Source of the DNA: Escherichia coli
GTDB lineage: Bacteria; Pseudomonadota; Gammaproteobacteria; Enterobacterales; Enterobacteriaceae
DNA length: 64,000 bases
Assembly (NCBI RefSeq): GCF_050920415.1
Contig: NZ_CP169309.1
Reading direction: 5' to 3' (one strand)
The position numbers and the translations under genes are program-made. How positions within the stretch are numbered: position 1 is the stretch's first letter; each line of letters starts with the position of its first letter. A model generated the notes under the pieces. That model had not been told where the DNA came from and searched no databases. It was given only the letters and a program-made list of their open reading frames with translations. Below, piece after piece: positions 49,148 through 49,414 of the stretch.

Positions 49148-49151
<4 letters not shown>

Positions 49152-49414
49152 AAGAGTTTTTATTTTTATTTCACTCCACGGTCGGCGTCATACAAACCCG
49201 CAAGGCGTTGCAGGCAGCGGGCATGACTTTTCGCGTCAGCGATATTCCCCGTGATTTACGCGGCGGCTGCGGGTTATGCATTTGGCTGACCTGTCTGCCC
49301 GGCGAGGAAATACAATGGGTGATCCCTGGGCAGACCGAAGCGATATATTGCCAACAGGGCAGCAACTGGCAGTGCGTGGTGCATTACGATTCAGAAGCGT
49401 CAACCAGGCAATAA
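49148..49414 (+). CDS. DUF3343-like small protein, translationally coupled to yjiL
   Basis: 88 aa; the ATG overlaps the yjiL stop (ATGA); the pattern FLFLFHST...GCGLCIWL resembles DUF3343 proteins. Confidence 0.5.

Follow-up and report, generated by a model that had tools for sequence, protein, structure and literature searches.

YtiA of Escherichia coli, a PF11823 protein encoded with a double-cubane cluster protein and its ATP-dependent reductase, as a possible sulfur or selenium carrier

The double-cubane cluster protein (DCCP) of Carboxydothermus hydrogenoformans and its ATP-dependent reductase (DCCP-R) form a two-component system of known structure (6ENO, 7YYL; PMC7317905, PMC9351452), and its description does not mention a small third protein (PMC7317905). 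A separate line of comparative genomics links the DUF3343 family (Pfam PF11823, Se_S_carrier), which has a highly conserved cysteine, to SelD, YedF and selenocysteine (Sec) lyase (Lin et al. 2015, PMC5322559); in the same study the STRING table for Slackia lists an activase and '2-hydroxyglutaryl-CoA dehydratase subunits' as DUF3343 neighbours, uncommented. The gene duf3343 is also among the top five genes overlapping selD (Kayrouz et al., 10.1101/2022.04.13.486033), and 955 of 970 DCCPs occur in SelD-positive genomes (Haft, 10.1101/2022.07.06.499078). The present analysis concerns ytiA, a small gene at 49148..49414 (+ strand) of a 64,000-nucleotide stretch of Escherichia coli DNA (assembly GCF_050920415.1, contig NZ_CP169309.1; the window), where these two comparative-genomics signals, DUF3343 with SelD, YedF and Sec lyase on the one hand and DCCPs in SelD-positive genomes on the other, meet in one three-gene unit, yjiM-yjiL-ytiA. 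YjiM and YjiL are clear homologues of the C. hydrogenoformans pair, with the seven-cysteine motif of the DCCP and a TIGR00241 activase, whereas the C. hydrogenoformans system has two components and the E. coli locus adds ytiA as a third. That a DUF3343 carrier and a DCCP with its activase form one unit is stated nowhere in the literature searched, including the studies of Lin, Kayrouz and Haft.

The ytiA open reading frame (ORF) runs from an ATG start to a TAA stop and encodes 88 residues, beginning MKEFLFLFHSTVGVIQTRKALQAAGMTFRVSDIPRDLRGGCGLCIWLTC and containing both FLFLFHST (residues 4-11) and GGCGLC (residues 39-44). Its start codon (49148-49150) and the TGA of yjiL (49149-49151) share the tetranucleotide ATGA (49148..49151, + strand), read directly from the sequence in the context ...AAA CGC CGA TGA AAG AGT.... 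An earlier reading of the sequence alone (the sequence-only reading) had pointed to this overlap and to a DUF3343-like pattern in the product; both are borne out, and the search with PF11823 that it had proposed as a check gave a match well above the gathering score (48.4 bits against 25, E = 6.4e-13), with residues 4-59 aligned to profile positions 2-57 of 69. In an NCBIfam search YtiA was covered by no model. Given that 63 ORFs of at least 40 residues overlap the same 9-kb stretch around ytiA, the length of the ORF is weak evidence by itself; it is raised above chance by the PF11823 match, by a core that 5385 of the 5426 complete E. coli genomes searched contain and by the synteny that is kept in distant taxa. 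Upstream of the ATG there is only a weak GAG/GTGAG Shine-Dalgarno-like element (49134-49138), and translational coupling from yjiL to ytiA, inferred from the ATGA overlap, is putative. The two genes meet on the same strand by overlapping stop and start, with no terminator-like site at the junction in a terminator scan; the nearest such site lies inside yjiL (48949-48966), and the total for the region, three against 3.3 expected by chance, places the promoter and terminator scan at chance level, where it is uninformative. An Rfam search of 46900-50000 gave no RNA family. The ORF is almost certainly ytiA, the third and last gene of an operon-like yjiM-yjiL-ytiA unit.

The first gene of this unit, yjiM (47223..48374, + strand), encodes the catalytic reductase component, a double-cubane [8Fe-9S] cluster protein. 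YjiM reaches 531 bits against the NCBIfam equivalog NF040772 ('double-cubane-cluster-containing anaerobic reductase'; cut-off 350), matches Pfam HGD-D and aligns over its full length with the solved C. hydrogenoformans DCCP 6ENO (256 bits), and the RefSeq annotation concurs. Seven of its cysteines (C40, C59, C78, C108, C273, C302 and C335, at spacings of x18, x18, x29, x164, x28 and x32) align with cysteines of 6ENO. Unlike the C. hydrogenoformans protein it is without the N-terminal extension, the channel-closing helices, and is a 'class II' DCCP in the terms of the review from the Dobbek group (PMC7317905). The sequence-only reading had called YjiM HgdB-like and the whole a radical dehydratase-like system. 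The activator type holds for the ATPase YjiL, but the dehydratase label is out of date and is better replaced by double-cubane reductase: YjiM passes NF040772 and fails the dehydratase-subunit models, at 96 bits for HadC (cut-off 700) and 21 bits for HadB (cut-off 750); given these low scores and the single HGD-D gene of the locus, with no second HGD-D subunit found there, a beta subunit of a 2-hydroxyacyl-CoA dehydratase (HgdAB/HadBC) is ruled out. The second gene, yjiL (48384..49151, + strand), has a GTG start (RefSeq) 5 nt after an AAGGAG Shine-Dalgarno sequence, and its product, a predicted ATP-dependent activator and reductase (DCCP-R, 'archerase'), matches TIGR00241 (362 bits, cut-off 125) and Pfam BcrAD_BadFG and contains the motifs DKC(122)AAGTG and SMC(160)TVFAES. 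By analogy with HgdC, C122 and C160 presumably bridge a [4Fe-4S] cluster. On these profile and alignment matches YjiM is a DCCP, not a dehydratase beta subunit, and YjiL is its ATP-dependent reductase.

The yjiM-yjiL-ytiA trio recurs as a unit at unrelated chromosomal sites in other Proteobacteria. Approached from YtiA, for which the closest non-enteric representatives were taken from an exhaustive profile search, an HGD-D-activase-PF11823 trio was found to include P0133 (locus L003; HGD-D of 383 residues) with a 4-nt overlap, and P0138 (L091/L092) at a different chromosomal site, beside efp/epmB-like genes. The gene for P0144 (L093) starts by an ATGA overlap at the end of a gene fragment whose last residues, ...THPDGQFAGAIGAA, are those of an activase C-terminus, and the gene for P0136 (L005) is preceded by a 48-residue remnant opening with GIDSGST, the motif of activase N-termini. 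This remnant, a 48-residue ORF at 912-1058 of one metagenomic contig (GIGIDSGSTMAKG), overlaps the start of the PF11823 gene at 1046-1297; from its sequence the locus appears to be what a deletion left of a DCCP-activase-carrier trio, the small gene alone having survived.

Approached from the DCCP, a word-indexed homologue search with YjiM returned Enterobacteriaceae only, without diversity, and a scan of one genome per GTDB species with a three-sequence DCCP alignment was used instead. The 80 best loci were kept, with DCCPs 50-77% identical to 6ENO, from Firmicutes, Deltaproteobacteria, Actinobacteria, Bathyarchaeota and others, and their six-frame ORFs were searched with a local PF11823-type hidden Markov model. 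A PF11823 gene lies within 8 kb in 17 of the 80 loci, and in 12, from Firmicutes and Actinobacteria (L020, L026, L029, L031, L039, L051, L056, L063, L078, L081, L085 and L086), it stands directly between the DCCP and activase genes or right after the DCCP gene; with uniform placement and a chance of adjacency of about 10%, the binomial tail for at least 12 of 17 is 4e-9. The junction of the PF11823 gene is a 4-nt stop/start overlap in at least L020, L026, L029, L081 and L086, and every locus with a second, YjiM-like DCCP (435-529 bits to YjiM) has a PF11823 gene (6/6). The co-occurrence of DUF3343 with homologues of yjiL and yjiM, which the sequence-only reading had put forward for analysis, is thus present in a subset of DCCP loci, and its three-gene unit is backed both by the trio at unrelated sites and by the PF11823 genes beside DCCP and activase genes in Firmicutes and Actinobacteria.

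Genes of selenium and sulfur trafficking, typed among the neighbours of the DCCP loci by Pfam and NCBIfam searches, adjoin several of these PF11823 relatives. In a Lachnospiraceae locus (L078) the order is PF11823, a TIGR01977/SclA-like cysteine desulfurase/selenocysteine lyase, YedF (TIGR03527), DCCP, a further PF11823, activase and a YjiM-like DCCP. The same type of lyase precedes DCCP, PF11823 and activase in L063, and in L051, where a YjiM-like DCCP and a rhodanese protein follow. In Desulfosporosinus (L015) a DCCP and its activase are followed by an SclA-like lyase on the opposite strand, SelD, YedF, PF11823 and IscA/HesB, and in a metagenome-assembled genome of the Eubacteriales (L018) by HdrA2-like and MvhD-like genes, YedE (TIGR04112) and PF11823. 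Away from any DCCP, a PF11823 gene overlaps a YedE/YeeE-type Sulf_transp gene in L094, follows a TusA-DsrE protein in L006 and precedes YqeC in L095. This clustering of PF11823 with selenium genes agrees with the observations of Lin et al., Kayrouz et al. and Haft; where such relatives stand beside SelD, YedF, YedE or Sec-lyase-like genes, E. coli ytiA stands instead beside a DCCP and an activase. Two of the loci have further features of their own. In L018 the HdrA2-like and MvhD-like genes (9852-12286) lie between the DCCP activase and the YedE-PF11823 pair, an arrangement that hints at a flavin-based, electron-bifurcating supply of electrons for the DCCP-PF11823 module, and in L081 the activase is separated from the second DCCP by a LysR regulator.

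Comparison of 46 diverse PF11823 members from Proteobacteria, Firmicutes and Actinobacteria shows that only P34 and C41 (YtiA numbering) are invariant, with F8 and G42 kept in at least 90%, and alignments of enterobacterial YtiA sequences concur on P34 and C41. It is this pattern that defines a family signature P-x-P-R-x5-C-G, placed in the loop between strands b2 and b3; the codons of its P34-R35-x5-C41 part occupy 49247..49270 (+ strand) of the window, P34 at 49247-49249 and C41 at 49268-49270. C44, the second cysteine of the 'CGLC' stretch, is not kept outside close relatives. An AlphaFold2 model of YtiA built from 19 enterobacterial sequences (predicted local distance difference test score 87.4, predicted template modelling score 0.78) has the topology b1(2-8)-a1(11-23)-b2(28-32)-loop-b3(43-49)-a2(53-57)-b4(63-70)-b5(73-79). 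According to the model YtiA is a single domain of about 85 residues with a generic ferredoxin-like alpha/beta sandwich fold, and the loop P34-R35...C41-G42, which bears the sole invariant cysteine, is exposed. Neither a phmmer search with YtiA nor the 46-sequence family profile gave a credible match among all PDB sequences, and no solved relative was found; matches to LolB and to a designed protein were rejected as noise. Matches of several stretches in the long proteins P0155, P0183 and P0230 were likewise set aside, as repeat or low-complexity artefacts and not PF11823 domains. Among the Firmicutes copies beside a DCCP (L020, L026, L029, L039, L051, L056, L063 and L081) a Cys-Cys doublet (…KCCGIS…) stands where YtiA has GCG, and Lachnospiraceae copies beside a DCCP also end in a C-terminal cysteine (…RDRYC, …RNKFC); these extra cysteines may form a second chalcogen-binding site that YtiA is without.

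YtiA shares with PF11823 as described by Lin et al. 2015 (PMC5322559) its size, its single conserved cysteine and a profile score above the cut-off. A more distant likeness is to the TusA/SirA/YedF/YeeD carriers (PF01206), small alpha/beta proteins with one reactive loop cysteine that work with YedE/YeeE transporters and desulfurases, and the PF11823 member of L094 takes exactly the TusA-type position beside its Sulf_transp gene. Nevertheless, YtiA has no PF01206 match and no CPxP motif, which rules it out as a PF01206 member; its cysteine follows strand 2, whereas the TusA type has it where helix 1 begins, and the fold matches of YtiA include no TusA structure. The resemblance to TusA-type carriers would at most be one of working.

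Within E. coli, a megablast search against the 5426 complete genomes found the ytiA region in 5385; yjiM is present in 5381, and the first 193 nt of ytiA are 95-99% identical in 5274. The gene is already known: it is annotated in RefSeq for nearly all E. coli as 'DUF3343 domain-containing protein' or 'putative Se/S carrier protein', and the doubt of the sequence-only reading whether K-12 annotates this small ORF is resolved by the K-12 derivative J53, in which RefSeq ytiA encodes 85 residues at the same site and with the same overlap with yjiL. Nothing is therefore added to the E. coli gene list. Strain MB52 matches at 100% identity over the query and has the same 88-residue protein (WP_000657672.1, 'putative Se/S carrier protein'). 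Pairwise comparison of five E. coli alleles (Nei-Gojobori) gave ratios of non-synonymous to synonymous substitution (dN/dS) of 0.09-0.21 for ytiA codons 1-63, where substitutions are few, 0.03-0.08 for yjiM and 0.13-0.33 for yjiL; the value for ytiA is consistent with a protein under purifying selection. The literature on 'ytiA' mostly concerns B. subtilis, where the name stands for an unrelated L31 paralogue, and nothing on the E. coli gene was found there. A natural disruption of the unit occurs in E. coli STEC306 (L090, NZ_CP091016.1 4437705-4442874), where prophage tail-fibre genes adjoin a 5'-truncated, 71-residue ytiA and part it from yjiL; the record has a second match elsewhere.

Given PF11823 membership, the invariant Cys41 and Pro34, the co-presence of the genes across E. 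coli, the low dN/dS, the recurrent adjacency to DCCP and activase genes and the clustering with selenium and sulfur genes, it is tentatively suggested, with a little under an even chance of being right, that Cys41 of YtiA carries sulfur or selenium, either towards the YjiM/YjiL reductase or away from it. YtiA would then be a chalcogen carrier, with Cys41 holding a sulfane-sulfur or selenium adduct (a persulfide, perselenide or selenotrisulfide), and loaded YtiA would present its chalcogen to the double-cubane reductase YjiM, or would take up the product from it. YjiL, by ATP hydrolysis, would pass a very low-potential electron into YjiM. Overall, S(0)/Se(0) bound to the carrier would be reduced at the expense of ATP, and the sulfide or selenide so formed could, for instance, supply SelD; through the ATGA overlap, synthesis of YtiA would be tied to that of YjiL. 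A fuller proposal is on the same sequence evidence doubtful: YtiA would be the physiological partner of YjiM and in effect its substrate carrier, and with YjiL the two would make up a three-component system that spends ATP to reduce selenium (or sulfur) held on Cys41 in elemental or polysulfide-type form, providing SelD and the pathways beyond it with selenide (or sulfide).

Several observations weigh against a carrier role beside YjiM. First, the 'carrier' label of PF11823 comes from comparative genomics alone, with no experiment on a member in the literature searched. Second, a PF11823 gene is missing within 8 kb from 63 of the 80 DCCP loci, which makes the small protein an accessory of a subset of DCCPs and not an obligate subunit. 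Third, there is a striking difference in rate within one operon: a comparison of the window with L003 gives 81% identity for YjiM and 38% for YtiA, and divergence of YtiA so much faster than that of YjiM is unusual for a tight stoichiometric partner. Fourth, in E. coli (the window, MB52 and J53) the trio is not beside selD, yedE or yedF, and the neighbours of ytiA in the window (mdtM, yjiN, yjiM, yjiL, an espX6-like gene and yjiK) include no selenium or sulfur trafficking gene. Finally, the supplements of one E. coli ribosome profiling paper hold no entry for ytiA, yjiL or yjiM.

The presence of a PF11823 gene within the DCCP unit, frequently as the gene next after the DCCP and overlapping it by 4 nt (L020, L081, L086), could also be read as the mark of a maturation factor for the double-cubane cluster. 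In this reading the two [4Fe-4S] cubanes of YjiM would be joined by a mu2-sulfide (or selenide) bridge, the ninth of the cluster, donated from a persulfide or perselenide on Cys41. Such a role would suit the IscA/HesB gene that follows PF11823 in L015, and a selenium-bridged cluster has been named as a formal possibility by Haft. It is nevertheless unlikely for two reasons: PF11823 genes occur without a DCCP as well, beside YedE-type transporters, YedF-like proteins, YqeC and selD, and most sampled DCCP loci are without PF11823, so that the distribution in both directions favours a carrier of general use over an assembly factor specific to this cofactor. Rather improbable is a small structural or regulatory subunit of YjiM/YjiL that carries neither sulfur nor selenium and instead gates the substrate channel, stabilises or protects the oxygen-labile cluster of YjiL, or binds a metal or cluster through its cysteines. 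One invariant cysteine in the family is too few for cluster ligation, the solved DCCP:DCCP-R complexes and activity in vitro need two components only (PMC7317905, PMC9351452), YtiA diverges quickly relative to YjiM, and PF11823 is linked to selenium and sulfur genes even where no DCCP is near. That ytiA is a hitch-hiker, expressed or not, functionally unconnected with yjiML, or a gene in decay in E. coli, might be argued from its variable C-terminal third, its two allele types, frameshifted or truncated copies (P0119, P0142, STEC306) and the finding of no expression data in the literature searched, and is very improbable: 99% of E. coli genomes keep its core, at 95-99% identity, its dN/dS is well below 1, its motif is invariant across phyla, and adjacency to DCCP or activase genes is seen again and again in independent lineages that differ in gene order.

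If YtiA carries sulfur or selenium as suggested, the module of DCCP, activase and Se/S carrier hints, from its gene content, at selenium or sulfur reduction as the physiological role of DCCPs. Were YtiA the substrate carrier of a DCCP, this would be the first physiological role for these proteins; as a chalcogen carrier it could reveal how cells make selenide for SelD, and if YtiA-YjiM-YjiL feeds SelD, the confinement of DCCPs to SelD-positive genomes would be explained. The link between a DCCP and a selenium carrier is a moderately interesting lead, testable in the most tractable bacterium.

The 3' end of ytiA differs between strains. K-12 ytiA (WP_000657675.1, 85 residues) lies at the same locus with the same ATGA overlap, and its residues 1-49 are identical to those of the window protein. 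Residue 50 is leucine (L50) in the window and proline (P50) in each of the other four alleles compared; the C-terminus is diverged (...CQQGSNWQCVVHYDSEASTRQ in the window against ...CQQDGVWRCIAHYGVSPR in K-12). The alleles part from about codon 64 (49340..49414, + strand, in the window), as judged from DNA alignment to the K-12 derivative, allele translations, the GC profile and the O157 annotation, into an 88-residue type in the window and an 85-residue type in K-12. The C-termini of K-12, ST131 and STEC299 read ...CQQDG(V/G)WRCIAHYG(V/I)SPR and those of the window and O157 ...CQQGS(N/D)WQCVVHYD(S/A)EASTRQ. Unlike K-12 ytiA, the 88-residue allele does not adjoin yjiK directly but, in the three genomes examined, an island with an espX6 gene, and the EASTRQ-type end (window, O157) goes with the insertion of this island; the coincidence of the left edge of the island with the diverged ytiA 3' end accounts for the two C-terminal allele types.

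In the window the island is a low-GC stretch (29-41% GC) at 49415-51800, between ytiA and yjiK, and is absent from K-12. Its ORF at 49727..51784 (+ strand) encodes a 685-residue pentapeptide-repeat protein 76% identical to EspX6, an effector of the O157:H7 type III secretion system, and the AT-rich spacer upstream of this gene holds an inverted repeat of 15 nt with a 3-nt loop (49635-49667; TAAAGATAAGTTTCA / TGAAGCTTATCTTTA). Further upstream, at 43120..44076 (- strand), the window has an intact 318-residue ORF for a Rpn-family (RpnD/YjiP-like) recombination-promoting nuclease, the counterpart of which is a pseudogene with an internal stop in J53 and is present as two fragments in MB52.
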